Source of the DNA: Escherichia coli
Lineage (GTDB): Bacteria > Pseudomonadota > Gammaproteobacteria > Enterobacterales > Enterobacteriaceae
Length of the DNA stretch: 64,000 nucleotides
NCBI RefSeq assembly: GCF_029227855.1
Contig: NZ_CP074356.1
Reading direction: 5' to 3' (one strand)
The notes below the pieces were generated by a model that was not told where the DNA came from, did no database searches, and worked only from the letters and a program-made list of their open reading frames with translations. Made by a program: the position numbers and the translations under genes. Below are positions 7,984-60,127 of this stretch, one piece after another; the stretch's first letter is position 1, and each line of letters starts with the position of its first letter.

Positions 7984-9267
7984 GTGAACACATTTTCAGT
8001 TTCCCGTCTGGCGCTGGCATTGGCTTTTGGCGTGACGCTGACCGCCTGTAGCTCAACACCGCCCGATCAACGTCCTTCTGATCAAACCGCGCCTGGTACC
8101 TCTTCTCGCCCGATTCTGTCGGCAAAAGAAGCGCAGAATTTCGATGCTCAACACTATTTTGCATCCCTGACACTAGGTGCGGCAGCGTGGAATCCTTCCC
8201 CGATTACCCTGCCTGCGCAACCTGACTTTGTTGTCGGCCCGGCGGGTACTCAAGGTGTAACGCATACCACGATTCAGGCGGCGGTAGATGCGGCAATTAT
8301 CAAGCGCACCAACAAGCGCCAGTATATTGCCGTGATGCCTGGTGAGTATCAGGGAACGGTGTATGTCCCTGCCGCTCCGGGTGGAATTACTCTGTACGGT
8401 ACAGGTGAAAAACCGATTGATGTGAAGATTGGGCTTTCCCTTGATGGTGGCATGAGCCCTGCCGACTGGCGTCACGACGTCAACCCGCGCGGCAAATATA
8501 TGCCAGGTAAACCGGCGTGGTATATGTACGATAGCTGCCAGAGCAAACGCAGCGACAGTATCGGCGTTCTCTGCTCTGCGGTCTTCTGGTCACAAAACAA
8601 TGGCCTGCAACTGCAAAACCTGACCATCGAAAACACGCTGGGCGATAGCGTAGATGCGGGTAACCATCCGGCGGTGGCACTGCGTACTGATGGTGACCAG
8701 GTACAGATTAACAACGTTAACATTCTCGGTCGTCAGAACACCTTCTTTGTCACCAACAGCGGTGTGCAGAACCGTCTGGAAACGAATCGTCAGCCGCGTA
8801 CTCTGGTGACCAACAGTTACATTGAAGGGGATGTGGATATCGTTTCTGGTCGCGGCGCAGTGGTGTTCGATAATACCGAATTCCGCGTGGTGAACTCACG
8901 TACTCAGCAAGAAGCGTATGTGTTTGCACCGGCTACGCTGTCTAACATCTATTACGGTTTCCTCGCCGTAAACAGCCGTTTCAATGCTTCCGGTGATGGC
9001 GTGGCGCAACTGGGTCGCTCGCTGGATGTTGATGCCAATACCAACGGTCAGGTGGTGATCCGTGATAGCGCCATCAACGAAGGTTTTAACACGGCTAAAC
9101 CGTGGGCCGATGCGGTGATTTCCAATCGTCCGTTTGCGGGTAATACTGGCAACGTTGATGATAACGACGAAGTACAGCGTAATCTGAATGACACTAACTA
9201 CAACCGCATGTGGGAATACAATAACCGCGGCGTGGGTAGCAAAGTGGTTGCAGAGGCGAAGAAGTAA
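7984..9267 (+). CDS. ybhC: Pectinesterase-like outer-membrane lipoprotein YbhC
   Basis: A 427 aa ORF with a GTG start. It has a signal peptide with lipobox LTAC|SS and a parallel beta-helix pectinesterase-like sequence. Confidence 0.92.
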   Translation: MNTFSVSRLALALAFGVTLTACSSTPPDQRPSDQTAPGTSSRPILSAKEAQNFDAQHYFASLTLGAAAWNPSPITLPAQPDFVVGPAGTQGVTHTTIQAAVDAAIIKRTNKRQYIAVMPGEYQGTVYVPAAPGGITLYGTGEKPIDVKIGLSLDGGMSPADWRHDVNPRGKYMPGKPAWYMYDSCQSKRSDSIGVLCSAVFWSQNNGLQLQNLTIENTLGDSVDAGNHPAVALRTDGDQVQINNVNILGRQNTFFVTNSGVQNRLETNRQPRTLVTNSYIEGDVDIVSGRGAVVFDNTEFRVVNSRTQQEAYVFAPATLSNIYYGFLAVNSRFNASGDGVAQLGRSLDVDANTNGQVVIRDSAINEGFNTAKPWADAVISNRPFAGNTGNVDDNDEVQRNLNDTNYNRMWEYNNRGVGSKVVAEAKK

Positions 9268-42644: not shown

Positions 42645-44213
42645 TTAGCGTGCCGGCTGAGTAGTCGTGGAAGACTGCTCAAAGTGATAGCGACCGGTTT
42701 TCAGGCTGCTTGGGCCGAGGCGTGCAAACTTGAACATTAAGAACAATTCTGCCACCAGGAACAGGGTATACAGGCCGCAAATCAGCACCATTGAGAAGAT
42801 GAGATCGCCTGCGGTCAGTGACGAGTTCGCCACAGCTGTCGGCAGCACTTCACCGATAGCCCACGGTTGGCGGCCATATTCAGCCACAAACCAGCCCGCT
42901 TCTACAGCAATCCACGGCAGCGGAATACCGTACAGCGCGGCGCGCAGCAGCCATTTTTTCTCGCCAATGCGGTTGCGGATGACACTCCAGAAAGAGAGCG
43001 CGATGATTGCCAGCAGTAGGAAGCCACACGCCACCATGATACGGAACGCGAAGTACAGCGGCGCTACACGCGGAATGGAGTCTTTGGTTGCCTGTTGAAT
43101 CTGCGCTTCAGTCGCATCAGCCACGTTTGGCGTATAGCGTTTCAGCAGCAGACCGTAACCGAGGTCTTTCTTCATGCTATTGAACTGGTCACGAACCGCC
43201 TGGTCGGTAGAACCAGAACGCAGTTGCTCGAGCAGAGAGTACGCCTTCATCCCGTTACGAATGCGTTCTTCATGCTGCACCATCAGTTCTTTCAGGCCGA
43301 TAACTGGAGTATCCACGGAACGCGTTGCAATGATGCCCAGCGCGTAAGGGATCTGGATCGCAAATTTGTTCGTCTCCTCTTCCTGATCAGGAATGCCGAA
43401 CAGAGTAAAGGCAGCAGGCGCAGGTTGCGTTTCCCACTCGGCTTCAATAGCAGCCAGTTTGGTTTTCTGCACGTCGCCCATTTCGTAACCAGATTCATCA
43501 CCCAGAACAATAACAGACAGAACGGCAGCCATACCGAAGCTGGCAGCGATAGCAAAGGAGCGTTTAGCGAAGGCGAAGTCACGACCTTTCAGCATATACC
43601 ATGCGCTGATACCGAGGATGAACATCGCGCCAGTCACATAACCAGACGCTACAGTGTGAACGAATTTCACCTGAGCAACCGGGTTAAGCACCAGCTCGGA
43701 GAAGCTCACCATCTCCATACGCATAGTTTCAAAGTTGAAATCGGACGCGATTGGGTTTTGCATCCAGCCGTTCGCAACCAGAATCCACAGTGCGGACAGG
43801 TTTGAACCGAGCGCCACCAGCCAGGTGACACACATATGCTGAACTTTACCCAGACGATCCCAACCGAAGAAGAACAGACCTACAAAGGTGGATTCGAGGA
43901 AGAAGGCCATCAGACCTTCGATTGCCAGCGGCGCACCGAAGATATCCCCTACATAGTGGGAATAGTAAGACCAGTTAGTCCCGAACTGGAACTCCATGGT
44001 CAGACCGGTAGCCACACCCAGAGCGAAGTTGATACCAAACAACTTGCCCCAGAACTTGGTCATATCTTTATAAATCTGTTTGCCGGAAAGGACGTAGACC
44101 GTTTCCATAATGGCCAGCAGGAACGCCATACCGAGCGTCAGTGGCACAAAAAGGAAGTGGTACATCGCGGTCAAGGCAAACTGTAAGCGCGACAGTTCGA
44201 CTATATCTAACAT
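42645..44213 (-). CDS. cydA: Cytochrome bd-I ubiquinol oxidase subunit I
   Basis: [28 protein letters not shown]... gives 522 aa from the second of two tandem ATG codons. Confidence 0.97.
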
Positions 44214-44550
44214 CATGACTCCTTGCTCATCGCATGAAGACTCCGAGAGTGAACCCCGTTAGAAAGGGTCACACGCATGCCCCAATACAAAATTATTTGC
44301 TCGCCTCTATCGTTGCCATTTCATCAAAAGAGGAAAAGACAATGATAAAAAAGTTACAAATATGTTAATGAATAAACCAAATTGATCCCGTAATTATATT
44401 ACGCCGCAAAATCCTTACAATAAACATGTTTTTATTGAGCAAATTTGCATTTTTCGACAGTGATCAATTTATAGCGAAATTGTCACGATCTCACCAATTT
44501 GATCTACGACAATTTATCGTGTTTTGCAGATTTTTTTCAAGAATTAAAAA

Positions 44551-44564
44551 TTGATTTATATCAA
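44551..44564. promoter_or_regulatory. FNR site in the cydA promoter region
   Basis: ttgatttatatcaa is a perfect TTGAT-N4-ATCAA. A weaker copy, ttgatctacgacaa, is at 44499-44512. Confidence 0.75.
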
Positions 44565-45018
44565 AACCAACCAAATATGTTAATTGTGTATAAACCATAG
44601 ATCATTGGTGATTTTATTGTTAATTTATTGTGAAATATTTATGCAACACAATTATTACAATGAAAAGGTATAGATAAAAAACCAGTGTTTTATTTAACAG
44701 AACCGCCTTATCCACTTTTTATAATACCAATTGATTAGATTAGCCAATTTGTTGCTATTTTACATAACATATTTTTATCAAAGTTAATTGATTGTTGCGT
44801 TTATGAGCACCGGCCGTAAGCCCGTTATGTTATTGTTTCATTAGTAATAATCACTTAAATGTATCGATGAAACAGGTATGACTTAGCGGGAGTGATTGTT
44901 TCTGAGTGAACAGAGACCACTTTCGCCTGATAAATGAAAAATGAGCGATTTTTGCAAGTTAGTTTTTCTATAGCCGAGTACGCTCAGCGCCTCGCTTGAT
45001 TACAATGAGGTTGCTGCT

Positions 45019-45963
45019 ATGAGTCCTGATAATATCAGTTCTGCTGTCAATCGCTTCTCAGGTTGGCCATCTAATGATCCTCTAAAAACAGATAAAGAAT
45101 CAATGACATCACCCATGACTGTGCAGGTAATAAAGATGATTGCCGCCATCCTTGACCCACATCGGATAGTCGTTGGAATCGATACACTTTATACAACGCA
45201 GCGCGAAACATTTACCTCAGAGAGTCAACAGCTCATTGAATCAGCATTGCAAACACTTCATGTGATGAATTTAAATAACCTGGAAACAAATCTCGATGAG
45301 GAAGGTCACTATCTGGCTTTTGGATATAACGTTGACACTCCTGACAGAATAACCGTTTCTGCTTATAATGAAAAAAAGCCTGGCTGCTATGGCCAATGTC
45401 TTTTAATACAGGATGACGAAACAGACTTATTTAACCTGATAAAAGTTAAAATTTTTGAAGCCAGGCATAATTATGTCGCTCAATTGATGAGCGATCCGGA
45501 ATTTATGTTCAAATTTAGTTATAGCGCTCAACAAAATAGATTAGAACCTCATCTTCTGGTTCCCACTTATTTCCCTCTAAAAACAAACGAACCGGTTACG
45601 CAAGAGGATGTACTGTTACTTTATCGTTTCTTTAAAATGGATGGTGATTTTAATATATTAACATCAGATGAATACATGAGTATCATGACACCTCTAATGA
45701 AGTGTGAGCGTAGCATCCACGACCACAACAGGTATGTGACGGGCAAAGATACCCTTCTTCTGGACTATCCTCCTTCTGGTAACCAGATATATTTCCATAT
45801 TTTTCCTGACGAATCAGCAACACTAGTCCTTTATTTTTCAAACAATGACATTGAATGTTTCGTCTTTGAAAGAGATATTCCGAGCCAGTATCGCTTTTTC
45901 AAAATGTTTACCAATCTGGCACTGGTTATTGATCAGTTAACCGATGCCAATCAAATACTTTAA
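45019..45963 (+). CDS. Hypothetical protein, 314 aa, with no recognisable family
   Basis: A 315-codon open frame in very AT-rich DNA, where stops are frequent, so coding is likely. A GAGG sits 8 nt upstream of the ATG. I could recognise no motif. Confidence 0.75.
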   Translation: MSPDNISSAVNRFSGWPSNDPLKTDKESMTSPMTVQVIKMIAAILDPHRIVVGIDTLYTTQRETFTSESQQLIESALQTLHVMNLNNLETNLDEEGHYLAFGYNVDTPDRITVSAYNEKKPGCYGQCLLIQDDETDLFNLIKVKIFEARHNYVAQLMSDPEFMFKFSYSAQQNRLEPHLLVPTYFPLKTNEPVTQEDVLLLYRFFKMDGDFNILTSDEYMSIMTPLMKCERSIHDHNRYVTGKDTLLLDYPPSGNQIYFHIFPDESATLVLYFSNNDIECFVFERDIPSQYRFFKMFTNLALVIDQLTDANQIL

Positions 45964-46043
45964 TTTTTATATATTCCCTGTGGCAAATATTGCTAAACAA
46001 TGCCCGGGGATTAATTTTTATTACTCACGGAAAGATTTAAATA

Positions 46044-46466
46044 ATGATCCCATCTCAAATCTCTTTCAACACCCTTCCTGTCAATGCAACATACGCTTCA
46101 GAGACAACAGTTGACACACAAAAATTCTCTGACATCCTCTACTCAGCGGGGTGTTCCCTAAAGGATCTGGCTTATTTGAGCAGATGTCTGGCATCAATAC
46201 ATCCGACTATCGCCAAAAACATTTATGAAACAGAAAATCTCAGCGATCAAAAATTACTACATATTGATTGCCGTAGTACAAATGAAATCAAGATAAATAT
46301 CTTTTTTGGTCGACAACGAGAAGGATTAATTGAAATTAGTTCTGACACAGTCATTTTTTCGATACTGTCTTCATTGATTGACTCCACCATTTCTAAATTT
46401 CAACACCAAAACCCCGTTAACGGTTCTGTAAATCCTGACCTATTGTATGAGGATTATACTGATTAA
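46044..46466 (+). CDS. Hypothetical protein, 140 aa, with no recognisable family
   Basis: A 141-codon open frame in AT-rich DNA, 80 nt downstream of the previous ORF on the same strand. The RBS is weak. Confidence 0.6.
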   Translation: MIPSQISFNTLPVNATYASETTVDTQKFSDILYSAGCSLKDLAYLSRCLASIHPTIAKNIYETENLSDQKLLHIDCRSTNEIKINIFFGRQREGLIEISSDTVIFSILSSLIDSTISKFQHQNPVNGSVNPDLLYEDYTD

Positions 46467-47013
46467 ATCCCTCCTGTCGCGAAAAATGGCCTGCGTTATT
46501 GCCAGACGTAATAAAACTTTTGATTAACGTTTCTCGTACTGGTAGCACCCTCATGTACTTTTCTTTTTTACGAAAAATCAAAAGAGCTAACAAAGGTCAT
46601 AATTCGCATGAATCATTAATTATTTGTTATTTTCAACATTATTTTTACATTAAGCAGAGATGAATTGCAGTGAAATTCGACTTAACTTTTATGAAATGCA
46701 TTTACTCATGGCTAAAGCCACGTCACAAAAATGCAAATTAGAAGTTGATCACAATTATCTCAATACATCAAATCAAGTTAATTTTAAAAATTTAACATTC
46801 ATGACATCAGTTGACATAACACACTGAATTAAAATGAGAATTTGAAAACACACTTTAAACAATCATTTCCCGAAAGACATTTTGAAAATAGATCAATTGC
46901 AACATTACGGTCAGATAAAGACACTCCTGTGATATTAAACCTGTGCCGTTATGAACGGCCATAAATACGACGTGTGTAACTTATTTTACTCTCTGTCTTA
47001 CAAAGGATTACCC

Positions 47014-47463
47014 ATGAAGAAAGCAACACTTGTGATTGGCGTTATTGGCGCGGACTGCCATGCAGTAGGCAATAAAGTTCTGGACCGCGTTTTTAGCAAC
47101 CATGGCTTCAGAGTCATTAATCTGGGCGTAATGGTCAGCCAGGACGAATATATTGATGCTGCCATTGAAACTGGTGCTGACGCGATTGTCGTCTCCTCTA
47201 TCTATGGGCATGGCGATATCGACTGTCTGGACATGCGCGAACGCTGCATCGAGCGTGGACTGGGGGACATCCTGCTCTATGTGGGCGGTAACCTGGTGGT
47301 CGGAAAACATGACTTCGCTGACGTGGAAACCAAATTCAAAGAGATGGGATTTGATCGCGTCTTTGCCCCAAGTCATGACTTAGAAGATGTTTGTCAGCTG
47401 ATGGCCCACGATATCAACCAACGTCATGACGTTGATACTCGTATTCTTGAAGAGGCAATCTGA
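47014..47463 (+). CDS. glmS: Glutamate mutase (methylaspartate mutase) sigma / B12-binding subunit. This is not the GlcN-6-P synthase glmS.
   Basis: [23 protein letters not shown] carries the base-off/His-on cobalamin motif DxHxxG (DCHAVG). RBS aaagga lies upstream of ATG 47014. It is homologous to clostridial GlmS/MutS. Confidence 0.92.
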
Positions 47464-48851
47464 TGCAAATCGTCTCTGTCGATATTGGATCGACGTGGAC
47501 CAAAGCAGCCCTCTTCGCCCGGGAGGGGGACGCGTTAACGTTGGTTAACCACGTACTGACCCCAACCACCCCCCATCATCTGGCGAAGGGGTTTTTCTCC
47601 AGTCTGAACCTGGTGTTAAACGTAGATGATGCCCTCCCCCTGTTTAACAGCGGTGAGGTTGCATTGAAGTATTCCTCCTCTGCCAAAGGTGGGCTGGCGG
47701 TTGCCGCAATGGGATTGGTGCCTTCTATCACCCTGGAAACCGCGAAAGTAACCGCTCACTCTGCGGGGGCTAAAATTGCGCAATATTACGCCTACAAGCT
47801 GAACCGCCGTGATATCCAGGCACTGGAAGAAACGCAGCCCGATATTCTCTTGTTCACCGGCGGCACCGACGGCGGAGAAGAAAGCTACGGCCTGAATAAC
47901 GCCCGTGTGCTGGCAGAATCCAAACTCGACTGCGCCATTATTTATGCCGGAAACCGGGATATTCAGGACAAGGTGCAGGAGATCCTAGGGCATAAAGACC
48001 TGACCATCGTCGACAACGTTCTGCCCGATCTTGACCATCCGAACCCTTTAGCTGCACGCCAGGCTATCTGCGACATATTCCTTAAACGCATCGTTAAAGG
48101 GAAAGGGCTGGATGTCGTTGTTGATAAAACAGGCGAAGAACCAATGCCGACACCGTGGACAGTCTTTGAACTGGTTAAGGCAATCAGTAATGTCGATCAC
48201 AGCTGGAAAGAGTTCATGCTGATCGACATGGGCGGCGCAACCACCGATGTCTATTCCGCCTGTGCCAACACGCTCTCGCCCGACACCGTTTTACACGGCG
48301 TACCGGAACCCTTCGTGAAACGGACGGTGGAAGGCGATCTGGGAATGCGCGTCTCGGCAATGGTGGTTGGTGAAAGTGCGAAAGAGTTAGTCAATGTGAA
48401 TTTTGCTCAGCAACCCGCACAGCTGGACGCTTTTTATCATTACCTCCGTCATCTAGTCGCTCATCCCGACTACTTACCCGCGAATTCAGAAGAAAAATAT
48501 TTCGATACCGTCCTGGCCGGACTGTGTGTGGGTTATGCCACCGAAAGACATGCGGGCACCAAAAAAGAGGTCTGCACCTGCGTCGGCAATGTCGATTTAC
48601 AGATGGGACGTGACCTGACAACCGTGCGTAAAGTCGTCGGATCCGGCGGATGGCTCTCGCGTGCCAGTCAGTTCGATATGCATCACTGGTTGAAATACCG
48701 CAAGTTAAACGACGACGGTAAACGCATTCTCTTACCGACCGAATTTGAATATTACCGCGATTCCCGGGGGCTATTACCATTGCTGGCAAACGTCGCCAGA
48801 GTCGATCCGCTGGCCGCCGCGCGCACCAGTATTCAATGCTTAACCCTATAA
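47463..48851 (+). CDS. glmL: Glutamate mutase accessory protein GlmL/MutL (ASKHA-fold putative reactivase)
   Basis: A 462 aa ORF ([18 protein letters not shown]...). Its start overlaps the glmS stop (TGATG) and it sits between the S and E subunits, as in Clostridium. Confidence 0.85.
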   Translation: MQIVSVDIGSTWTKAALFAREGDALTLVNHVLTPTTPHHLAKGFFSSLNLVLNVDDALPLFNSGEVALKYSSSAKGGLAVAAMGLVPSITLETAKVTAHSAGAKIAQYYAYKLNRRDIQALEETQPDILLFTGGTDGGEESYGLNNARVLAESKLDCAIIYAGNRDIQDKVQEILGHKDLTIVDNVLPDLDHPNPLAARQAICDIFLKRIVKGKGLDVVVDKTGEEPMPTPWTVFELVKAISNVDHSWKEFMLIDMGGATTDVYSACANTLSPDTVLHGVPEPFVKRTVEGDLGMRVSAMVVGESAKELVNVNFAQQPAQLDAFYHYLRHLVAHPDYLPANSEEKYFDTVLAGLCVGYATERHAGTKKEVCTCVGNVDLQMGRDLTTVRKVVGSGGWLSRASQFDMHHWLKYRKLNDDGKRILLPTEFEYYRDSRGLLPLLANVARVDPLAAARTSIQCLTL

Positions 48852-48869
48852 CAATTAAGGCTGCAATCA

Positions 48870-50315
48870 ATGGAACTTCGAAATAAGAAATTAACCCATG
48901 ACGAATTCATGACCGAGCGGCAACAGGTACTGAAAACCTGGGAAACCGGCAAGGATGTTGAAAACTTTGAAGATGGCGTTAAATACCAACAAACCATTCC
49001 TGAGCATAAACGCTTCTCTCTTGCGCTGTTGAAAGCAGACAAGGAAGGTAAAACCCTTAGCCAACCGCGCGCAGGTGTGGCGCTGATGGACGAACACATC
49101 GAACTACTGAAAACACTACAAGAAGAGTGCGATCTGCTGCCGAGCACTATCGATGCATATACCCGTCTGAATCGGTACGAAGAAGCGGCTGTAGGGATTA
49201 AAAAATCCATCGAAGCCGGAACCTCTAAACTGAACGGTTTGCCGGTAGTTAACCATGGCGTCGCAGCTTGCCGTCGCCTCACCGAAACCCTGCAAAAACC
49301 GCTACAGATCCGCCACGGCACGCCAGATGCGCGTCTGCTGGCTGAAATCTCGATGTCCAGCGGCTTTACCAGTTACGAAGGCGGCGGCATTTCCTACAAC
49401 ATTCCGTATGCCAAACGCGTAACGCTGGAAAAATCGATCCGCGACTGGCAGTACTGCGACCGTTTAATGGGGATGTATGAAGAACACGGGATCCGCATCA
49501 ACCGCGAACCGTTTGGCCCACTAACAGGTACGCTGATCCCGCCGTTTATCTCGCACTCTATCGCGATAATCGAAGGCTTGCTGGCGCTGGAACAGGGTGT
49601 GAAATCTATCACCGTTGGTTATGGACAGGTCGGCAGCCTGACGCAGGATGTTGCGGCGATCCAGTCTCTGCGTGAACTTGCACACGAATATTTTCAGAGC
49701 TATGGCTATACCGACTATGAATTAAGTACCGTGTTTCACCAGTGGATGGGCGGCTTTCCGGAAGACGAATCGAAAGCGTTCGCTATTATCTCCTGGGGCG
49801 CAGCCGTCGCGGGGATGTCTGGTGCCACCAAAGTCATCACCAAAAGCCCGCACGAAGCCTGGGGTATCCCGACTGCCGCTGCCAACATTCAGGGGCTGAA
49901 AGCCTCCCGCCAGATGCTCAACATGGTCAACGAGCAGAAATTCCCGCCGTGCCCTGCGGTTGAACTGGAAATTGAACTGATTAAGAGCGAGGTTCGCGCG
50001 GTACTGAATAAAGTGTTCGAACTGGGTAATGGTGATATTGCGCGCGGTACGGTGCTGGCATTTGAAGCGGGCGTACTGGATGTGCCGTTTGCGCCAGCCG
50101 CCTGCAACGCGGGCAAAATTCTTCCGGTCCGTGACAACACCGGCGCGATACGCGTACTGGAAGCCGGAGCCGTTCCATTGCCAAAAGATATTCTCGACCT
50201 CCACCACGATTACGTTGCTGAACGCGCACGCTTTGAAGGACGCCAACCGACATTCCAGATGGTTGTAGATGACATCAATGCTGTATCCCACAGTAAATTA
50301 ATAGGAAGACCATAA
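48870..50315 (+). CDS. glmE: Glutamate mutase epsilon (catalytic) subunit
   Basis: A 481 aa ORF. MELRNKKLTHDEF...SQPRAGVALMDEHIELL...PSTIDAYTRLNRY...HQWMGGFPEDESKAF aligns along its length with clostridial GlmE as I remember it. Confidence 0.93.
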   Translation: MELRNKKLTHDEFMTERQQVLKTWETGKDVENFEDGVKYQQTIPEHKRFSLALLKADKEGKTLSQPRAGVALMDEHIELLKTLQEECDLLPSTIDAYTRLNRYEEAAVGIKKSIEAGTSKLNGLPVVNHGVAACRRLTETLQKPLQIRHGTPDARLLAEISMSSGFTSYEGGGISYNIPYAKRVTLEKSIRDWQYCDRLMGMYEEHGIRINREPFGPLTGTLIPPFISHSIAIIEGLLALEQGVKSITVGYGQVGSLTQDVAAIQSLRELAHEYFQSYGYTDYELSTVFHQWMGGFPEDESKAFAIISWGAAVAGMSGATKVITKSPHEAWGIPTAAANIQGLKASRQMLNMVNEQKFPPCPAVELEIELIKSEVRAVLNKVFELGNGDIARGTVLAFEAGVLDVPFAPAACNAGKILPVRDNTGAIRVLEAGAVPLPKDILDLHHDYVAERARFEGRQPTFQMVVDDINAVSHSKLIGRP

Positions 50316-51556
50316 TGAAAATAAAACAGGCCCTTTTTACCGCTGGCTACTCCTCATTCTATTTCGATGACCAGCAGGCGATAAAAAACGGAGCGGGTCA
50401 CGACGGTTTTTTTTATACCGGGGAGCCAGTAACACAGGGGTTTAACGCCGTACGTCAGGCCGGGGAGTGCGTATCGGTACAGTTGATTCTGGAAAACGGC
50501 GCGGTCGCCGTAGGTGACTGTGCTGCCGTACAGTATTCCGGGGCAGGCGGTCGCGATCCACTGTTCCTCGCGGAGCACTTTATTCCGTTCCTCAACGACC
50601 ATATCAAGCCATTACTGGTAGGCCGCGATGTGGATGTTTTCCTGCCGAATGCCCGTTTCTTCGACAAATTGCGTATTGACGGCAACTTGCTGCATACCGC
50701 CGTGCGCTACGGATTATCACAGGCTCTGCTTGATGCTACCGCGCTGGCAACCGGCCGTCTGAAAACTGAAGTGATCTGTGATGAATGGCAGTTGCCACGC
50801 GTGGCGGAATCCATTCCATTATTTGGTCAGAGCGGGGACGATCGATATATCGCCGTCGATAAGATGATCCTTAAGGGCATCGACGTGCTGCCCCATGCGC
50901 TGATTAATAACGTCGAAGAGAAGCTGGGCTTTAAAGGTGAAAAACTGCGCGAATATGTCCGCTGGTTGTCGGATCGCATTCTGAGCAAGCGCACCAGCGC
51001 ACGCTACCACCCAATCCTGCACATCGATGTATACGGCACTATCGGTCTGATCTTCGATATGGATCCGCTTCGCTGTGCGCAATACATCGCCAGCCTGGAA
51101 AAAGAAGCGCAAGGCCTGCCGCTCTACATTGAAGGGCCGGTCGATGCCGGTAACAAGCCCGATCAAATTCGCCTGCTGACCGCGATTACCAAAGAGCTGA
51201 CGCGCCTCGGTTCCGGCGTGAAACTAGTGGCCGATGAATGGTGTAACACCTACCAGGATATTGTTGATTTCACAGATGCCGCCAGTTGCCACATGGTGCA
51301 AATCAAAACCCCGGATCTGGGCAGTATTCACAACATCGTCGATGCAGTTCTTTATTGCAACAGCCACAGCATGGAAGCGTACCAGGGCGGCACCTGCAAT
51401 GAAACTGATGTCAGTGCCCGCACCTGTGTCCACGTCGCCCTTGCCGCTCGCCCCATGCGTATGCTGGTAAAACCAGGGATGGGCTTTGACGAAGGCCTCG
51501 ATATCGTCTTCAACGAAATGAATCGTACTATCGCGCTGTTGCAGGCTAAGGATTAA
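50315..51556 (+). CDS. mal: 3-methylaspartate ammonia-lyase (enolase superfamily)
   Basis: A 413 aa ORF. MKIKQALFTAGYSSFYFDDQQAIKNGAGHDGF...AVQYSGAGGRDPLF...HMVQIKTPDLG...GGTCNET is clearly homologous to the Clostridium tetanomorphum methylaspartase. Its start overlaps the glmE stop (TAATG). Confidence 0.94.
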   Translation: MKIKQALFTAGYSSFYFDDQQAIKNGAGHDGFFYTGEPVTQGFNAVRQAGECVSVQLILENGAVAVGDCAAVQYSGAGGRDPLFLAEHFIPFLNDHIKPLLVGRDVDVFLPNARFFDKLRIDGNLLHTAVRYGLSQALLDATALATGRLKTEVICDEWQLPRVAESIPLFGQSGDDRYIAVDKMILKGIDVLPHALINNVEEKLGFKGEKLREYVRWLSDRILSKRTSARYHPILHIDVYGTIGLIFDMDPLRCAQYIASLEKEAQGLPLYIEGPVDAGNKPDQIRLLTAITKELTRLGSGVKLVADEWCNTYQDIVDFTDAASCHMVQIKTPDLGSIHNIVDAVLYCNSHSMEAYQGGTCNETDVSARTCVHVALAARPMRMLVKPGMGFDEGLDIVFNEMNRTIALLQAKD

Positions 51557-51559
51557 CAA

Positions 51560-52930
51560 ATGGCTCGTTCTTTTAAAGTCTTATCGCCAACGGCAATCCT
51601 CGGGTATGGATTCCCGGAAGAGAGCTTCCGCAAAGCGATGGCAGAATCGCCCGATCTGATCGCCGTTGATGCAGGCTCTTCCGATCCTGGCCCCCACTAC
51701 CTCGGGGCGGGCAAACCGTTTACCGATCGCGCAGGGGTCAAGCGCGATCTGCGCTATATGATCACCGCAGGCGTGCAAAATAATATACCGGTGGTGATCG
51801 GAACGGCCGGCGGTTCTGGTGCCGCTCCACACCTGGAGTGGTGCCGAGAAATAATTCATGAGATTGCCCGGGAAGAGCACCTCTCGTTCTCGATGGCGTT
51901 GATCCCGGCAGACGTTGACAAAGCCATCGTCCACCAGGCGCTGGATAACGGCAAAATCACGGCGCTGGAGTTTGTCCCGCCGTTAACCCACGACGCGATT
52001 GACGAAAGTACGTATATCGTTGCGCAAATGGGCATCGAACCCTTCCAGCGGGCGCTGAAAGAAGGCGCGCAAGTGGTGCCGGGCGGGCGCGCTTACGACC
52101 CGGCCTGCTTTGCTGCGCTTCCGATCATGCAAGGCTTTGATGAAGGTCTGGCGCTTCATTGTGGGAAAATCCTTGAATGCGCGGCAATCGCCGCAACGCC
52201 CGGCTCAGGCTCTGACTGTGCGATGGGCATCATTGATGACAACGGCTTTACGCTGAAGACATTTAATCCGAAGCGTAAATTTACCGAAACGTCAGCAGCT
52301 GCACACACACTGTATGAGAAATCCGATCCCTACTTCCTGCCTGGACCTGGCGGCGTGTTGAACCTGAAAGGCTGCACATTTAAAGCGGTCAATGACAGCG
52401 AAGTGTACGTCAGCGGTTCTAAGCATGAAGAAACGCCGTATTCCCTGAAACTGGAAGGTGCGCGACGGGTGGGCTTCCGCTGTCTGACCATCGCAGGAAC
52501 GCGCGACCCGATCATGATCGCCGGGATCGATAAAATCATCGATGAAGTCAAAACCAGCGTTTCGCGTAACCTGTCGCTCGACGATGACAGCATTCACATC
52601 AATTTCCACCTGTACGGCAAAAACGGGGTGATGGGCGACCATGAACCGATGCAAACTGCCGGGCATGAGCTGGGGATTGTCCTAGATGTAGTTGCGCCGA
52701 CCCAGGAAATTGCCAACAGCGTTTGCTCGCTGGTGCGCTCTACTATGCTGCACTACGGCTATGAAAACCGCATCGCTACCGCAGGCAACCTGGCGTTCCC
52801 GTTCTCCCCTTCTGATATCCAGGGCGGGCCGGTATACGAATTTTCCATATATCACCTGATTGAAGCCAACGACGCTCTGCGTTTTGATTTCCATATTGAA
52901 CAGGTGACGCCAGAAGGAGTTCAGGCATGA
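51560..52930 (+). CDS. Uncharacterised protein, DUF1446 / AtuA-like family (by recollection)
   Basis: A 456 aa ORF starting 3 nt after the mal stop. Its overall look and its pairing with a DUF4387-type small protein match AtuA-like proteins. The family assignment comes from memory only. Confidence 0.8.
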   Translation: MARSFKVLSPTAILGYGFPEESFRKAMAESPDLIAVDAGSSDPGPHYLGAGKPFTDRAGVKRDLRYMITAGVQNNIPVVIGTAGGSGAAPHLEWCREIIHEIAREEHLSFSMALIPADVDKAIVHQALDNGKITALEFVPPLTHDAIDESTYIVAQMGIEPFQRALKEGAQVVPGGRAYDPACFAALPIMQGFDEGLALHCGKILECAAIAATPGSGSDCAMGIIDDNGFTLKTFNPKRKFTETSAAAHTLYEKSDPYFLPGPGGVLNLKGCTFKAVNDSEVYVSGSKHEETPYSLKLEGARRVGFRCLTIAGTRDPIMIAGIDKIIDEVKTSVSRNLSLDDDSIHINFHLYGKNGVMGDHEPMQTAGHELGIVLDVVAPTQEIANSVCSLVRSTMLHYGYENRIATAGNLAFPFSPSDIQGGPVYEFSIYHLIEANDALRFDFHIEQVTPEGVQA

Positions 52931-53244
52931 AACAGTCAATTGTCTCACTGGCGCAAGTCATTCGTTCGAAAAATGCCGGACCTTACGAACTGGTTTTAGA
53001 TATTTTATTTAAAACGAAAGAAAACTATGAGCGAGTTAAATCATCAGGGCAATTAACCCCAGAACTGATTGCGCGCTTATATCATGTTGAACCTGACTTT
53101 ATTCACCGTATTGTCTGGTTTGATCCTTCTAACGCAGTAAAAATCGTCATGCCACGAGATATTATCTCCGGGAATGTAGGTGACAATGATGTCTATGGTG
53201 CACAGCAACATGCACCTTTATTAAATATGAGTTTCGATTTGTAA
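52927..53244 (+). CDS. Uncharacterised small protein, DUF4387-like
   Basis: A 105 aa ORF whose start overlaps the upstream stop (ATGA). The motifs VIRSKNAGPYEL and YGAQQHAPLL are what I recall as DUF4387 hallmarks. Confidence 0.8.
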   Translation: MKQSIVSLAQVIRSKNAGPYELVLDILFKTKENYERVKSSGQLTPELIARLYHVEPDFIHRIVWFDPSNAVKIVMPRDIISGNVGDNDVYGAQQHAPLLNMSFDL

Positions 53245-53326
53245 AAATCCGAATACTTTTAGCCAACTGACATCCCGTCACTTATTGCAGTTCAACACTT
53301 CAGCTATTTGTAAGGTTGTAATAGCA

Positions 53327-53360
53327 GGTAGATGCCTGAATCTCTATTCAGGCATCTACT
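53327..53360 (+). terminator. Long perfect inverted repeat between the DUF4387 gene and the transporter gene (possible attenuator/terminator or protein site)
   Basis: ggtagatgcctgaat-ctct-attcaggcatctac has a 14-15 bp stem, but the downstream T-tract is poor (ttctcctgatt). Confidence 0.4.
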
Positions 53361-53404
53361 TCTCCTGATTCTGATTTATCGCCGTGCACCTGATGGAGGA
53401 AAAA

Positions 53405-54685
53405 ATGAAGAAAATAAGTTTAACCACGATGATTCTTTTGGCGCTGGTACTTGGAATGATTATCGGCGTAGTGCTCAATAACACTGCTTCACCGGAAACC
53501 GCAAAACTCTATGCGCAAGAAATATCGATATTCACGACGATTTTCTTACGACTGATAAAAATGATTATCGCTCCGTTAGTGGTCTCTACCCTGGTGGTAG
53601 GTATAGCTAAAATGGGCGATGCCAAAGCCCTTGGTCGTATTTTTTCTAAAACACTCTTTTTATTTATTTGCGCCTCATTGCTGTCAATTGCCTTAGGCTT
53701 GATAACAGTAAATTTCTTCATGCCAGGCACAGGAATTAATTTTGTTGCACACGGAGCCGAAACCACCGGAGTGGTCGCGTCAGAACCCTTTACGCTAAAA
53801 GTATTTATTTCGCATGCTTTCCCCACCAGCATTGTCGATGCCATGGCGCACAATGAAATTTTGCAAATCGTGGTGTTCTCAATTTTCCTCGGCTGTAGCC
53901 TGACGGCGATTGGCGAGAAAGGCAGCGCCATCGTTCACGCCTTAGATTCGCTGGCACATGCCATGTTAAAGCTCACTGGCTACGTCATGCTCTTCGCTCC
54001 CCTGACCGTATTCGCTGCTATTTCAGCATTGATTGCTGAACGAGGACTGGCAGTTATGGTGAGCGCCGGGATCTTTATGGGTGAATTTTATTTCACCATG
54101 TTATTACTTTGGGTGCTGCTTATCGGTCTGGCCATCGTTTATGTTGGCCCCTGCATCAGACGCCTGACCCGCGCCCTTTCGGAACCCGCCCTGCTGGCAT
54201 TTACCACATCCAGTTCTGAAGCGGCTTTTCCGGGAACGCTTGAAAAACTGGAGCAATTTGGCGTTTCCCCAAAAATTGCCAGTTTTGTCTTACCCATTGG
54301 CTACTCATTTAATCTCGTTGGATCAATGGCCTACTGCTCCTTCGCCACAGTTTTCATCGCCCAGGCCTGCAATATCCATTTATCCATCGGTGAGCAAATC
54401 ACCATGCTGTTGATCCTGATGTTGACCTCGAAAGGAATGGCTGGCGTACCACGCGCCTCAATGGTGGTTATCGCCGCCACGCTCAACCAGTTCAATATTC
54501 CGGAAGCGGGGCTGATCTTGCTGATGGGCGTTGATCCGTTCCTTGATATGGGGCGTTCAGCGACAAACGTCATGAGCAACGCAATGGGCGCTGCGATGGT
54601 GAGTCGGTGGGAAGGCGAACATTTCGGCGAGGGCTGTCGGGGTAAAGCATTAAAACCCAATGAATCGAACGTTGCTCTGCCCTGA
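53405..54685 (+). CDS. DAACS-family (GltP/DctA-like) dicarboxylate/amino acid:cation symporter
   Basis: A polytopic membrane protein with the family motif TSSSEAAFP. I place the start at ATG 53405, behind GGAGGA. Alternative starts lie at 53384 and 53393. Confidence 0.88.
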   Translation: MKKISLTTMILLALVLGMIIGVVLNNTASPETAKLYAQEISIFTTIFLRLIKMIIAPLVVSTLVVGIAKMGDAKALGRIFSKTLFLFICASLLSIALGLITVNFFMPGTGINFVAHGAETTGVVASEPFTLKVFISHAFPTSIVDAMAHNEILQIVVFSIFLGCSLTAIGEKGSAIVHALDSLAHAMLKLTGYVMLFAPLTVFAAISALIAERGLAVMVSAGIFMGEFYFTMLLLWVLLIGLAIVYVGPCIRRLTRALSEPALLAFTTSSSEAAFPGTLEKLEQFGVSPKIASFVLPIGYSFNLVGSMAYCSFATVFIAQACNIHLSIGEQITMLLILMLTSKGMAGVPRASMVVIAATLNQFNIPEAGLILLMGVDPFLDMGRSATNVMSNAMGAAMVSRWEGEHFGEGCRGKALKPNESNVALP

Positions 54686-54792
54686 GGGGGATCTTAAGCA
54701 ATCAGAAGCCAATGACTACGCATTTTTATAAGCCGGATCATGAAGTTAGACGGCAATTAAGTAAAACTAACGTTTAAGGTGAAAAGTGAAAT

Positions 54793-56445
54793 ATGTCCAA
54801 ACCATTTATCTGGCAAGAACCGTTTCTACAAAATAAAGACGGTACAGAATATACATTAATTAGCGATCAACATATTACAGTAACGGAATTAGACGGCGAA
54901 GAAGTAATAAAAATCGCTCCTGAAGCATTAACGCTGCTTGCCCGGCAGGCATTTTATGAAGCCTCTTTTTTCTTACGTTCCGCTCATTTGCAACAGGTCG
55001 CCAGCATTCTTAACGATCCGCAGGCCAGTAGTAATGATAAATACGTTGCGTTGCAGTTATTACGTAATGCTGAAGTCTCAGCAAAAGGGGTATTACCCAA
55101 CTGTCAGGATACCGGCACCGCAACTATTGTTGCCAGTAAAGGGCAACAGATATGGACGGGAGGTAACGACGCTGAAGCCTTAAGCAAAGGCATTTACACC
55201 ACTTTTCAGGAAAATAATCTGCGCTTTTCACAAAATGCGCCACTGGATATGTTTACCGAAGTCAATACGCAAACCAATCTCCCGGCGCAGATTGATATCA
55301 GCGCCGTCGCTGGTGATGAGTACCATTTTCTCTGTATTAATAAAGGGGGCGGCTCTGCCAATAAAGCCGCGCTTTATCAGGAAACCAAATCCCTATTGCA
55401 ACCAGAAAAACTGACCGCATTTTTAATCGAAAAAATGAAATCGCTGGGCACCGCTGCCTGCCCGCCTTACCACATCGCCTTTGTCGTCGGAGGACTTTCA
55501 GCCGATCAAACCTTAAAAGTTGCCAAGCTGGCCTCAACGAAATATTACGACAATTTGCCCACCAGCGGAAACGAGCAAGGACAAGCATTCCGTGATATTG
55601 AGCTGGAAAAAGTATTGCTCGAGGCCAGTCAGCAATTTGGTATTGGTGCGCAATTTGGGGGTAAATATTTCGCTCATGATATTCGCGTCATTCGTCTGCC
55701 GCGTCACGGTGGCTCTTGCCCGATAGCTATGGCGCTCTCCTGTTCTGCGGATCGCAATATCAAAGCAAAAATTAACAAGCACGGTATCTGGCTGGAAAAA
55801 CTCGAACACAATCCGGGGCAATATATTCCAGCCTCACTGCGGGAAGAAAATCACGCGCAACATGTACAGCTGGATCTAAACCGTCCGTTGCGTGACGTGA
55901 TGCAGGATCTCGCCAGATTACCGGTAGGCACCCGCGTGTCGTTAAGTGGTCCCATCGTAGTGGCGCGCGATATCGCCCACGCCAAAATAAAAGCGCGGCT
56001 GGATAGCGGCGAACCGATGCCGGATTACCTGAAGCATCATATTGTCTATTACGCTGGCCCGGCGAAAACACCGGAGAACATGGCCTGCGGTTCACTGGGT
56101 CCAACCACGGGCGGTCGAATGGACGGTTATGTCGATACCTTCCAGGCGGTTGGCGGCAGTCTGGTGATGTTATCGAAAGGTCACCGCAGCCAGCAGGTCA
56201 CCGATGCCTGTCACAAACATGGCGGCTTCAATCTGGGAAGTATTGGCGGTGCAGCTGCGTTACTGGCGCAAGAATATGTCAAAAGTCTGCGTTGCCTGGA
56301 ATACCCGGAGCTGGGTATGGAAGCGGTGTGGATGATGGAAGTGGAAAATCTGCCCGCATTCATCCTGGTAGATGATAAAGGCAATAATTTCTTTAGTCAG
56401 TTTGAGCAGCAACACCGCTGCGCCAGTTGCCCTGCGGGACATTAA
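54793..56445 (+). CDS. fumD: Class I (Fe-S) fumarate hydratase homologue, the FumD-type mesaconase/fumarase
   Basis: A 550 aa ORF colinear with E. coli FumA ([11 protein letters not shown]...CQDTGTA...GGGSANK...CPPYHIAFV...GPTTGGRMD...). It is a third class I paralogue located in the methylaspartate cluster. Confidence 0.9.
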
Positions 56446-56454
56446 GGAAAATGA

Positions 56455-57057
56455 ATGGAAGCGCGAATTTCAACTGAACGGCATGTGCAGCGCCAGCAGA
56501 AATTGAAGGAACAGGTCGATACGCGCATCGCGGCGGCGATAGAGAAAAAAGGGATTTTGATTGTTTTCACCGGCAATGGCAAAGGGAAATCCACTGCCGC
56601 GTTTGGTACTGTGACGCGCGCGGTGGGTCATGGCAAAACGGTGGGGGTTGCGCAGTACATCAAGGGGCAATGGGACAACGGCGAATACAACCTTCTCCAG
56701 CCGCTGGGGGTTGAGTTTCATATTATGGGAACCGGTTTTACCTGGGAGACACAGAACCGGCAAGCGGATATCGACGCGGCGAAAGAGGTCTGGTCGGAAA
56801 GCAAACGGATGCTGGCTGACAAGCGTTACGACTTAGTGGTGCTTGATGAGCTGACCTATATGCTGGCTTACCATTATCTGGATACCGAAGAAGTGATCGC
56901 TTCTCTGCAAAACCGCCCGGCACAACAAAGTGTCATTGTCACCGGACGCGGTTGCCACAGTCAGATATTAAAAATGGCGGATACGGTCAGCGAAATCCGC
57001 CCCGTCAAACATGCTTTTGATAACGGCATTCAGGCGCAGCCGGGTATCGACTGGTAA
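56455..57057 (+). CDS. ATP:cob(I)alamin adenosyltransferase (CobA/BtuR family paralogue)
   Basis: A 200 aa ORF. ILIVFTGNGKGKSTAAFG (P-loop)...GFTWETQNR...VVLDELTYM...RPVKHAFDNGIQAQPGIDW aligns with BtuR. It starts 9 nt after fumD. Confidence 0.92.
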   Translation: MEARISTERHVQRQQKLKEQVDTRIAAAIEKKGILIVFTGNGKGKSTAAFGTVTRAVGHGKTVGVAQYIKGQWDNGEYNLLQPLGVEFHIMGTGFTWETQNRQADIDAAKEVWSESKRMLADKRYDLVVLDELTYMLAYHYLDTEEVIASLQNRPAQQSVIVTGRGCHSQILKMADTVSEIRPVKHAFDNGIQAQPGIDW

Positions 57058-57060
57058 TAA

Positions 57061-57092
57061 CTGCGCCTGGCATCCCGCCAGGCGCAGGTTTT
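57061..57092. terminator. Bidirectional hairpin between the convergent adenosyltransferase and LysR genes
   Basis: ctgcgcctgg-catcccg-ccaggcgcag followed by gtttta. Confidence 0.6.
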
Positions 57093-57996
57093 ACATCTCC
57101 TGCGGTACAACCGATTTCGCCAGCAACCATTCACGAAATTGCTGCAAGTGCGGTGAGTCAGACTTCTCTTCCTGCCACGTCATAATAAAACGATTACCGG
57201 TACGAATAGGCACATCACAGGGGATCACCATATCGCCACTATCCAAATCATGTTGAATAGCGAAACGTGGTAACAGCGCCACGCCGAGATTAGAGCGCAC
57301 GGCGGCAATCAGCATTGAAAGCAAATCGAAACGTGGTCCGTTGTTGACCAGTGGACTGCTAACGCCAGATAAAGCAAACCACTCTTCCCAGCCAGTAATA
57401 CGGGTGCTTTGATGCAGAAGTGGTAACTCAGTAAGCAGTTCTGCCACTGACAGTTTTTGATCGGACATTGCAAGCAAACTGCCGCTGCATACCGGCAAAA
57501 TCTCCTCATCAAAGAGATATTCTACTTCCGCCCAGGGCGCGCAAAAATTTTCGCGCATAATGACAGCATCGTACTCCCGATTAAGAAAATCGCCGTTATT
57601 AGCTAAAGAGTGAATATTAACAATAATATCGGGATGTAACTTTGTGAATTCATGTAAATTTGGGATTAACCAGTGGGTACTAAACGTAGGATTCACGGCA
57701 AGTTCAATAACCTGAACCGTAGGCTGCCAGGTCATAATAGTATTGGTATCGCGTTCCAGCTTATTTAATGTTTCTTTTACTATCCCCAGGTAATACTTCC
57801 CTGCATCATTAAGAAAAATACGTTTTTTAGAGTGTGAAAATAACGGAGTATGTAAAAATTCCTCCAGCGCACTCACTTGTCTGAATACAGCACTTTGGGT
57901 TAACGCTAACTCCTCTGCCGCTCTGGTATAACTTTCATAACGTGCGACGACCTCAAAAGTCACCAGCAGCTCCGTTTTAGGTATTTTTCCTCGCAT
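57091..57996 (-). CDS. LysR-type transcriptional regulator
   Basis: MRGKIPKTELLVTFEVVARYESYTRAAEELALTQSAVFRQVSALEEFL (wHTH) gives 301 aa from ATG 57996. The track ORF begins at an upstream TTG. The gene is visibly AT-rich. Confidence 0.88.
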   Translation of the reverse strand: MRGKIPKTELLVTFEVVARYESYTRAAEELALTQSAVFRQVSALEEFLHTPLFSHSKKRIFLNDAGKYYLGIVKETLNKLERDTNTIMTWQPTVQVIELAVNPTFSTHWLIPNLHEFTKLHPDIIVNIHSLANNGDFLNREYDAVIMRENFCAPWAEVEYLFDEEILPVCSGSLLAMSDQKLSVAELLTELPLLHQSTRITGWEEWFALSGVSSPLVNNGPRFDLLSMLIAAVRSNLGVALLPRFAIQHDLDSGDMVIPCDVPIRTGNRFIMTWQEEKSDSPHLQQFREWLLAKSVVPQEM

Positions 57997-58208
57997 AATT
58001 CCGTCCGTGAAAAAATAACAATTCAAAAATTATTTTATAAAAAACAGTAGCACTAATGAATATCATAATTCAAATAAACAAACCAGTCAGCTATATGTCT
58101 AACCAGGAAAATAAAGTGACAATAATCCTAAAACAGGAATTTCACCTCAGTTATCCGCATGCAATACTTTAAAGCTATTATTGCAAGAATATTATTCATA
58201 TACATGAA

Positions 58209-58334
58209 TATACTCTAAATAAGTCAAGTTGCAGGAAGGGAACAAATAATGAATTTCCAGAAGCTTACATAAGTAAGTGACCTGAGTGAGCGAACATCGA
58301 TGCAGCACATGCAACTTGAATTATGACAAGTATA
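58209..58334. repeat. ERIC (IRU) repeat, degenerate copy
   Basis: tatactctaaataagtcaagttgcaggaaggg...atgaatttccagaagcttacataagtaagtgacctgagtgagcg...gcaacttgaattatgacaagtata aligns end to end with the copy at 11653-11779. It has many substitutions that weaken the central hairpin. Confidence 0.85.
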
Positions 58335-58585
58335 CAATGATAAATTTATATACCCTATGTTATATATTATCTATGTCCGGTTAAATTGAATGAGTCATGG
58401 CCTTAAAAGACTTCACAAAAGATAATTCCTCTTTAACAATAAGCCAGATTTACCACTTGTAAAACTTGCTATCGCCACATACACTACGCGCGTTTTCTTT
58501 CCCTTTTGCTGGCTGCTGACCGGAAAGACAAAATTACCCTCGCAATACAGGGGGTTGTTTAACGTCTATATTTCAGGACAGCGTT

Positions 58586-59983
58586 ATGCATCATCTTTCA
58601 AGGCTTGATAAAGCCTTTCTGCGCAAAGGGATCCAACTTTCCCGCGCCAACAATATTGTTTCATTATCTCGTCCATCAGGTGCCAGTGCCCGCGTACTGC
58701 TGCCGGACGAACTGCCGCTGGAAGAAAAAGCAGTAACACAACTGCTTGATTTTGCAGAAGTGAAGCTACCAGACCACCCAGGTTATGTGCGCCAGACGTG
58801 CGCGACGCCAGATTTTCATCCCGGCAATGGCGTCCCCGTTGGCGCGGTGGTGGCCTCAACGCCGGATTTAGTCATTCCCGCCGCCATCGGCACCGATATT
58901 TCTTGTGGCATGCGGCTGCTGACGACCGGATTAACACTTGAGCAAGCCGAAGCGCATAAAGACATCATCGCTCAGCGGTTAACGCAAGTGCTGCTGCAAA
59001 ATGAGCGCGATGTTCCGTTATCCGCACAGGCGTTCACTGCGCTTTTTGATGGCGGACCGGCAGATTGCGTGTCGACCTTGCCATCAGCAGGTCTCTGGAC
59101 ACGCACGAATATCCCCCGAATGGTACAAGAGATTGACTGCTGCATTGGGCTTAACGAGCATAACAGTCATTCGCGTTATGCCCCACCCGCCCTGCTGGCA
59201 ACGGACCGCGCATTACTCCGCGATCCTTGTCTGGGTACGCCGGGTTCAGGTAATCATTTTATTGAACTTCAGGTCGTTGATAGCGTGGTTGATCGCCATG
59301 TAGCCTGGCAACAAGGGCTGAAAACAGGCGATATTGTGGTGATGATCCACAGTGGATCGCGAGATGTTGGCTTTTACGTCGGAAGACGCTGGATGGATCG
59401 CGCCCGTGCTGAATGGCCCACCGGACATAAACATCCACAAAGCGGGTTATATGGTCTGGCAGGCGGACTGGCGGAGGAATATCTACAAGCGATAGGAATG
59501 GCTGCGCGTTACGCGTGGTTAAATCGCGTCACAATTGCCGAAATGGTGCGCGTATGTCTCGCCAATCTCTTTCATCAGGACAATTCGCATCTGGTGGTGG
59601 ATGTGCCGCATAACATCATCCTTCGCGAGCATGAAATGAATATTCATCGCAAAGGTGCAACACCGGCACGAGTGGGCGATCTGGCATTAATCCCCGGTTC
59701 AATGGGCGATTATTCGTGGCTTGCAGTCGGTTGCGGCAACCCGGAGTGGCTGTGGTCATGCAGTCACGGAGCAGGACGCAGCCAGCGTCGACAGGCCATG
59801 CGCTCAAGCGCGACTGAAGAGTCAACGCTGCCGTGGCAATGCGTCACATTGCGTGAAGAACGACGTCTTGAAGAAGCGCCAGCGGCTTATAAAGATATTG
59901 GTCCGGTTATCGAAGCCCAACAAGAAGCCGGATTAATTCAACCAGCGGTCAGATTTCGACCGTGGTTAACGTTTAAGGGGTAA
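58586..59983 (+). CDS. RtcB-family RNA 3'-phosphate ligase homologue (stand-alone)
   Basis: A 465 aa ORF carrying the RtcB signature motifs DFHPGNG, GTDISCGM, GSGNHFIE, HSGSRDVG, VPHNI, HRKGATP, PGSMG, SHGAGR and EAPAAYK. Confidence 0.9.
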   Translation: MHHLSRLDKAFLRKGIQLSRANNIVSLSRPSGASARVLLPDELPLEEKAVTQLLDFAEVKLPDHPGYVRQTCATPDFHPGNGVPVGAVVASTPDLVIPAAIGTDISCGMRLLTTGLTLEQAEAHKDIIAQRLTQVLLQNERDVPLSAQAFTALFDGGPADCVSTLPSAGLWTRTNIPRMVQEIDCCIGLNEHNSHSRYAPPALLATDRALLRDPCLGTPGSGNHFIELQVVDSVVDRHVAWQQGLKTGDIVVMIHSGSRDVGFYVGRRWMDRARAEWPTGHKHPQSGLYGLAGGLAEEYLQAIGMAARYAWLNRVTIAEMVRVCLANLFHQDNSHLVVDVPHNIILREHEMNIHRKGATPARVGDLALIPGSMGDYSWLAVGCGNPEWLWSCSHGAGRSQRRQAMRSSATEESTLPWQCVTLREERRLEEAPAAYKDIGPVIEAQQEAGLIQPAVRFRPWLTFKG

Positions 59984-60065
59984 CTGAAATGATAAATGGC
60001 CTGCGGTTCTCACGCAGGTCAAATCTGGTATCTGCGTAAGCTAACAAACTTGTTTATCAACAATC

Positions 60066-60089
60066 TCAGGCCATCCGAAGATGGCCTGA
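60066..60089. terminator. Hairpin downstream of mngB
   Basis: tcaggccatc-cgaa-gatggcctga stem-loop. There is no clear U-tract on either strand. Confidence 0.35.
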
Positions 60090-60127
60090 AATTATTGCCC
60101 CCCTTAGATACACTTTTAGCGCAATAA

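Follow-up and report, generated by a model that had tools for sequence, protein, structure and literature searches.

Introduction

Orphan genes (ORFans) of Escherichia coli are described as shorter and AT-richer in a population survey (PMC3514957). We analyzed a pair of AT-rich open reading frames (ORFs), ORF314 and ORF140, which lie in tandem between the cydA gene and a glutamate-fermentation gene cluster in E. coli; the stretch of DNA under analysis, hereafter the window, comprises 64,000 nt of contig NZ_CP074356.1 (assembly GCF_029227855.1). Like such E. coli ORFans, the two ORFs have homologs in a narrow clade only, are AT-richer than the genome, occur in part of the species and evolve faster than core genes. 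Unlike those ORFans, ORF314 is long (314 amino acids, aa), is syntenic and intact in Escherichia albertii, is found at the level of the genus rather than of the strain, and is under measurable purifying selection.

The pair also shares features with other described systems. With AT-rich acquired genes silenced by H-NS it shares a GC content of 33–38% in a genome of about 51% GC and near-zero expression in 11 conditions, but no donor is identifiable, and the synteny in E. albertii fits vertical descent equally well. The likeness to type III secretion system (T3SS) effectors encoded outside the locus of enterocyte effacement (LEE), together with class I chaperones, lies in the AT-rich DNA, in apparently unstructured N-termini rich in Ser, Thr, Asn and Pro, and in a small acidic second protein; unlike such pairs, the two proteins have no similarity to LEE proteins, at least 39% of the carriers are without LEE, and the partner has been lost in E. 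albertii. Finally, type II toxin-antitoxin and toxin-immunity pairs likewise consist of two neighboring genes of small to medium size that run in one direction and are set apart by a short spacer, but in contrast to type II toxin-antitoxin pairs the locus has no family match, is not mobile, has no homologs elsewhere and has one partner that persists alone.

Results and Discussion

Restriction to Escherichia

We favor, and consider reasonably probable, the reading that ORF314 and ORF140 are real, single-copy orphan genes restricted to Escherichia, which encode soluble acidic proteins and are probably silenced and useful only under certain conditions. The original prediction, made from the sequence alone, could assign neither protein to a family, and this still holds: Pfam, NCBIfam, PADLOC and PHROGs (E ≤ 1) gave no significant match for either of them, nor did sequence and profile searches of PDB place either in a known family (best E-values 0.47–1.7). 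DNTTIP1_dimer, Intu_longin_2, Arylesterase, BigA_beta and phrog_24553 came up as sub-threshold noise only and were discarded.

A word-indexed search of a protein set of 5.8 billion clusters returned Escherichia sequences only; ORF314 drew 5 clusters and ORF140 drew 42, with many truncated or frameshifted copies among the 42. When a profile of ORF314 built from four sequences was scored with HMMER against all 1.84 billion (1.84e9) representatives, the 14 hits obtained were all fragments of the same gene (77–100% identical). E. albertii was the only other species found in a scan of GTDB species for ORF314, and the 17 loci from a metagenome scan with ORF140 were all of E. coli type. Sources that name either protein call it hypothetical or uncharacterized, and come from E. 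coli or E. albertii. Taking an orphan to be a gene with no homolog outside a narrow taxon, both ORFs qualify, ORF314 being found in E. coli and E. albertii and ORF140, by the word-indexed search and the metagenome scan, in E. coli only.

An origin from phages or plasmids was considered and rejected, as tblastn with both proteins gave no match among 50,697 phage records, and among 72,556 plasmid records each protein matches only three E. coli records, which look like mislabelled chromosomes or very large replicons. An apparently divergent allele (L014), considered as a new lineage, proved to be an error-ridden E. coli contig.

Evidence for coding function

Both ORFs were originally judged to be probably real genes, and the evidence is in favor of this. 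Stop codons are expected at 0.068 per codon at the local base composition, and a given frame would stay open over 314 codons with a probability of 2.7e-10 and over 140 codons with one of 5.4e-5. Comparison of ORF314 with an intact E. albertii allele (65% aa identity) gave a synonymous divergence (dS) of 0.51 and a nonsynonymous divergence (dN) of 0.22, that is a dN/dS of 0.43; against O157 the ratio is 0.47 for ORF314 and 0.22 for ORF140, and the value for cydA, given for comparison, is 0.006. Synonymous changes in ORF314 are enriched over nonsynonymous ones (Fisher p = 2.7e-7), and the differences cluster at the third codon position (64/54/95, chi-square p = 0.0016). That the frame has been kept open over a dS of 0.51 between two species, with dN lower than dS, argues that ORF314 is selected as a coding sequence, and both ORFs are fast-evolving genes under weak but real purifying selection. 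Frames broken in most strains were looked for as a sign of the opposite and were not seen: the sampled RefSeq genomes (O157 Wll001, A34 and 3CM) carry both ORFs at full length, as do most of the independent contigs from metagenomes and Logan, a few low-coverage contigs carrying disrupted copies.

Several points weigh against the two ORFs being functional orphan genes independent of their neighbors. A dN/dS of about 0.45 is high, and selection on ORF314 is weak. The ORF314 frame is shifted in FDAARGOS_946 and in the E. albertii type strain, where it is split into 209 + 108 aa, and in two complete genomes (H42 GN25 and H55 Br_112_kylling) insertions of IS903B and of an IS4-family element lie in or next to the pair; strains interrupted in this way are natural knock-outs and could be used for phenotype comparison. 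For ORF140 there is a recurrent 160-aa variant with more than 100 member sequences, in which a C-terminal frameshift runs into the spacer (P0014 represents 105 member sequences, and P0010 sits on a 4.7-Mb contig). Protein-level support in the form of a Ribo-seq or proteomics entry was searched for and none was found. Relatives of ORF140 beyond E. coli were not found either, but no exhaustive profile search was run with this protein and distant ones could be missed. Lastly, the counts of E. coli genomes with the pair and with the mutase genes of the neighboring cluster are equal (1135), which would leave room for a functional link to that cluster within E. coli.

Some of these points lend themselves to a different explanation, namely that the ORFs are relics, formerly or never functional and drifting to loss, with the constraint as a leftover. 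Besides the dN/dS of ORF314 and the scattered frameshifts and insertions, it could account for the almost complete lack of transcription in 11 conditions, for the absence of the segment from about 79% of E. coli genomes and for the state of ORF140 in E. albertii, where it is already a pseudogene. We nevertheless think it unlikely that the ORFs are relics, given the negligible chance that a 314-codon frame in DNA of 38% GC would stay open across a dS of 0.51 without selection, the significant deficit of dN relative to dS, the full length of most alleles in both species, and the near-invariance of residues 27–117 of ORF140 among E. coli alleles.

Uncoupling of the two genes in E. albertii

In E. 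albertii, ORF314 (65–69% identical) adjoins cydA, with orientation and distance unchanged from E. coli. The locus is devoid of the mutase cluster and of mngRAB, and ORF314 is followed by a 258-aa gene and then sucD. The two species are homologous at the DNA level over cydA and ORF314 and as far as the opening codons of ORF140 (window position 46069), after which only a short remnant is left. In this remnant the homologous place holds an ATG, the frame stops after 23 codons, 3 nt and 14 nt are deleted, and beyond about codon 60 the homology is gone. Given the early stop, the deletions and the lost homology, ORF140 is a pseudogene in E. albertii. ORF314, on the other hand, has the length of 314 aa in 13 of the 15 listed E. 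albertii members of its cluster. The pair had been proposed to form an independent two-gene module; since ORF314 is intact beside a decayed ORF140, it does not constitute an obligate, co-inherited module.

This arrangement also bears on the idea that the pair is a toxin-antitoxin, toxin-immunity or small anti-phage defense module, which is suggested by two adjacent, co-directional genes in AT-rich DNA with an 80-nt gap that holds no terminator, and by their being fast-evolving orphans. As ORF314 survives the decay of ORF140 in E. albertii, ORF140 is no essential antidote to ORF314, and the partners are not kept or lost together, what is left of ORF140 being a frameshifted and truncated remnant. 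Defense and toxin-antitoxin modules typically spread by horizontal transfer. The pair, by contrast, has a fixed chromosomal position, is single copy, and has no homolog in another genus, in phages or in plasmids (save the three odd E. coli records). PADLOC, moreover, gave 0 families at E ≤ 1, and Pfam nothing. A PD-(D/E)xK nuclease was considered for ORF314 on account of a PD-x8-EKK string, which is not conserved in E. albertii, and was rejected. Taken together, we find a toxin-antitoxin or defense function highly improbable.

Under the reading that we favor, ORF314 is the older gene, located beside the cydAB control region in both species and able to survive alone, and ORF140 is maintained in E. 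coli only. Both genes would be kept silent by xenogeneic silencing of the H-NS type, and their products would work separately as accessory proteins when a particular niche calls for them. Such a pair is nothing out of the ordinary for an accessory region of E. coli, and no new mechanism is indicated. A bolder proposal is that ORF314 has a new fold, is specific to the genus and has a real, condition-specific role, either as a previously unrecognized secreted or host-interaction factor common to E. coli and E. albertii or as a protein that emerged, or diverged beyond recognition, within Escherichia, with ORF140 as an even younger companion confined to E. coli. We consider this improbable; if emergence or divergence within Escherichia were true, the fixed syntenic locus would make recent gene birth tractable to study. 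The pair is in any event a convenient test case for the origin and persistence of orphan genes in E. coli, as it offers a fixed syntenic position, two species to compare, measurable purifying selection and natural knock-outs.

We also observed that the 258-aa gene downstream of ORF314 in E. albertii (L002, 11786–12562) has a signal-peptide-like N-terminus and no Pfam hit on record. Only a 114-aa C-terminal piece of it is open in the type strain (L004, 11862–12206), where ORF314 and the 258-aa gene are thus both broken.

Gene order and relation to the glutamate-fermentation island

The region from 44200 to 47000 of the window is 100% identical to E. coli strain JNEC-KY178 and contains the following features.

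44217..44584, no strand assigned: upstream control region of cydA, common to K-12 (blastn against MG1655; homology to K-12 stops at 44584; GC 0.33)
44585..45018, + strand: non-coding AT-rich stretch (GC 0.33) 5′ of ORF314, lacking in K-12 and conserved in E. albertii
45019..45963, + strand: ORF314 (ECs_0767 in Sakai), ATG start, 314 aa
45964..46043, + strand: AT-rich spacer of 80 nt between ORF314 and ORF140 (79–81 nt in other alleles)
46044..46466, + strand: ORF140 (ECs_0766 in Sakai), ATG start, 140 aa
46467..47013, no strand assigned: AT-rich spacer of 547 bp (GC 0.32) between ORF140 and glmS, the annotated start of glmS being at 47014

The coordinates, sizes, shared direction and 80-nt gap that had been given for the two ORFs are all exact, and the non-coding AT-rich DNA that separates them from the metabolic operon, put at about 550 bp, measures 547 bp to the glmS start. 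Their AT-rich setting at the edge of the island is likewise borne out, with a GC content of 0.29–0.40 across 44250–47000 as against 0.51–0.57 in the flanks; the ORFs have 0.37–0.38, the adjoining non-coding stretches 0.33, and cydAB and the metabolic cluster 0.51–0.53. The gene order is cydB-cydA on the minus strand, an 802-bp intergenic region, ORF314, ORF140 and then the island, which begins with glmS, the first gene of the glutamate-fermentation cluster. It continues with glmL, glmE, methylaspartate ammonia-lyase, an AtuA-like gene, DUF4387, a dicarboxylate symporter, FumD (class I fumarase/mesaconase) and cobO; after cobO come a LysR regulator and an RtcB-family gene, followed by mngB-mngA-mngR and sucD.

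The pair is present in 1135 of 5426 complete E. coli genomes, nearly always in one copy, and the segment is absent from about 79%; the mutase genes are likewise found in 1135 of the 5426. The glutamate-fermentation cluster has also been reported in Klebsiella, Citrobacter, Enterobacter, Salmonella, Yersinia, Morganella and E. fergusonii (PMC4682846). No homolog of either ORF turned up in these other enterobacterial taxa that carry the cluster in the protein-set and metagenome scans, so the pair does not travel with the cluster across taxa. Nor does it share the transcription unit or composition of the cluster, given the 547-bp spacer with a GC of 0.32 and the 0.37–0.38 of the ORFs against 0.51. 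Since the cluster occurs elsewhere without the pair, and ORF314 occurs in E. albertii where the cluster is lacking, the two ORFs are not island cargo, and an acquisition together with the island finds no support. ORF314 predates the metabolic cluster at this site, or is at least independent of it. This corrects the picture of the O157 glutamate-fermentation island, the genes at its edge being older residents of the cydA flank.

Alternatively, the proteins could serve the neighboring operons, either as regulators or accessory factors of glutamate fermentation or as modulators of cydAB. The identical genome counts of the pair and the mutase genes could be understood in this way, as could the divergent orientation of ORF314 relative to cydA across an 800-bp intergenic region common to both species. 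No DNA-binding or other domain was, however, detected with Pfam and NCBIfam, the cluster carries a LysR regulator of its own, and cydAB works in the absence of the pair in about 79% of E. coli genomes. Together with the occurrence of the cluster without the pair, and of ORF314 without the cluster, in other taxa, this makes a role in the neighboring operons very unlikely in our view.

Expression and probable silencing

RNA-seq of EDL933 in 11 laboratory and environmental conditions showed every candidate gene at the locus at no more than 12 reads per kilobase per million (RPKM). Near-zero expression in AT-rich DNA fits silencing by H-NS, and both genes are probably subject to H-NS-type xenogeneic silencing. 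In K-12, the region upstream of cydAB, next to which the pair lies, is reported to bind H-NS.

Promoter-like hexamers around the pair are as frequent as in shuffled sequence and no promoter was mapped; we presume that 44585..45018 holds the promoter region of ORF314. GAGG is found 8 nt 5′ of the ORF314 ATG, with AAGG at that place in E. albertii. A terminator-like hairpin was not found in the 80-nt spacer, three weak ones all lying within ORF314, and co-transcription of ORF314 and ORF140 is plausible. Rfam gave no matches in 44000–47200.

Protein features

The ORF314 product is an acidic protein of 36.3 kDa (pI 4.7), most conserved in residues 1–100, and the ORF140 product an acidic protein of 15.7 kDa (pI 4.8) with a variable C-terminal tail (residues 118–134) that may be dispensable. 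Both are predicted to be soluble. The absence of a transmembrane segment and of a nucleotide-binding motif, noted at the outset, was confirmed, as neither protein has a hydrophobic segment (maximum Kyte-Doolittle values in a 19-residue window of 1.25 and 1.52) or a Walker A motif. Both ORFs are single copy, and the Sakai annotation of ECs_0767 and ECs_0766 is “hypothetical protein.”

The original prediction had further suggested that the two proteins share a beta-rich domain, pointing to 7 identities in 17 positions between the C-terminal part of ORF314 and ORF140. The count is correct. The domain, in contrast, found no support: a single BLASTP comparison of ORF314 with ORF140 gave E = 2.2, and hhalign of the two family alignments gave a probability of 1.1% and paired different segments. 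When Smith-Waterman scores were compared with those of 2000 shuffles, p was 0.52 for the whole proteins, 0.23 for the C-terminal part of ORF314 against ORF140 and 0.66 for its N-terminal part. Judged by these alignments, the resemblance is at chance level. An internal duplication in ORF314 was rejected as well (N-terminal versus C-terminal half, p = 0.95). In low-confidence models of both proteins, helices are followed by a meander of three strands and then by a long helix, a similarity that does not speak for homology.

Of the first 30 residues, 14 in ORF314 and 15 in ORF140 are Ser, Thr, Asn, Pro or Gln, with one Leu each, and both N-termini are predicted to be unstructured. In this respect one or both proteins could be T3SS substrates, that is effectors or an effector with its chaperone, resembling the AT-rich genes of non-LEE effectors that are dispersed over the E. 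coli backbone. The fairly high dN/dS would agree with such a role, as would the small size and acidity of ORF140 (140 aa, pI 4.8), which recall class I chaperones, and both carrier species include LEE-positive lineages. E. albertii is generally LEE-positive. The N-terminal composition, however, is expected from AT-rich codons anyway, no effector family of Pfam or NCBIfam was matched, and BLASTP against 17 LEE proteins of Sakai gave nothing for ORF314 (E ≤ 10), the lowest E-value for ORF140 being 0.19. For ORF140, the topology predicted at low confidence, with three helices, three strands and one long helix, differs from the alpha-beta3-alpha-beta2-alpha fold of the chaperones, and ORF140 has been lost in E. 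albertii. As to occurrence, which was scored by escN-escV of LEE, LEE is found in 697 of the 5426 genomes, so that, of the 1135 genomes with the pair, at least 438 (at least 39%) are without it. Isolates from water, birds and other animals are among the carriers, and the tie to pathogenic E. coli that had been implied is thus not upheld. We therefore hold a T3SS-related role to be most unlikely.

Flanks of the variable segment

K-12 is without everything from 44585 to 60124 of the window (15.5 kb) and has 475 bp of unrelated sequence instead. In MG1655 this 475-bp intergenic DNA lies between mngB and cydA (L005 locus, 7616–8090), and no part of the window corresponds to it. Neither of the two arrangements can thus have arisen from the other by simple deletion, and the 15.5-kb segment behaves as a single presence/absence polymorphism within E. 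coli. At the far end of the island, the LysR-family regulator is located at 57091–57996 on the minus strand, and the RtcB-family (RNA ligase) gene at 58586–59983 on the plus strand stands alone, neither rtcA nor rtcR being annotated beside it.

Divergence from K-12 climbs toward both junctions of the segment (44301–44584 and 60125–60439), which suggests either an old presence/absence polymorphism with linked divergence or a recombinational import of the segment along with its flanks. Identity to K-12 is 59–86% in the last 300 bp of the shared region upstream of cydA and 81% at the 3′-end of mngB; cydA itself is 96–100% identical to K-12 in 100-bp blocks.

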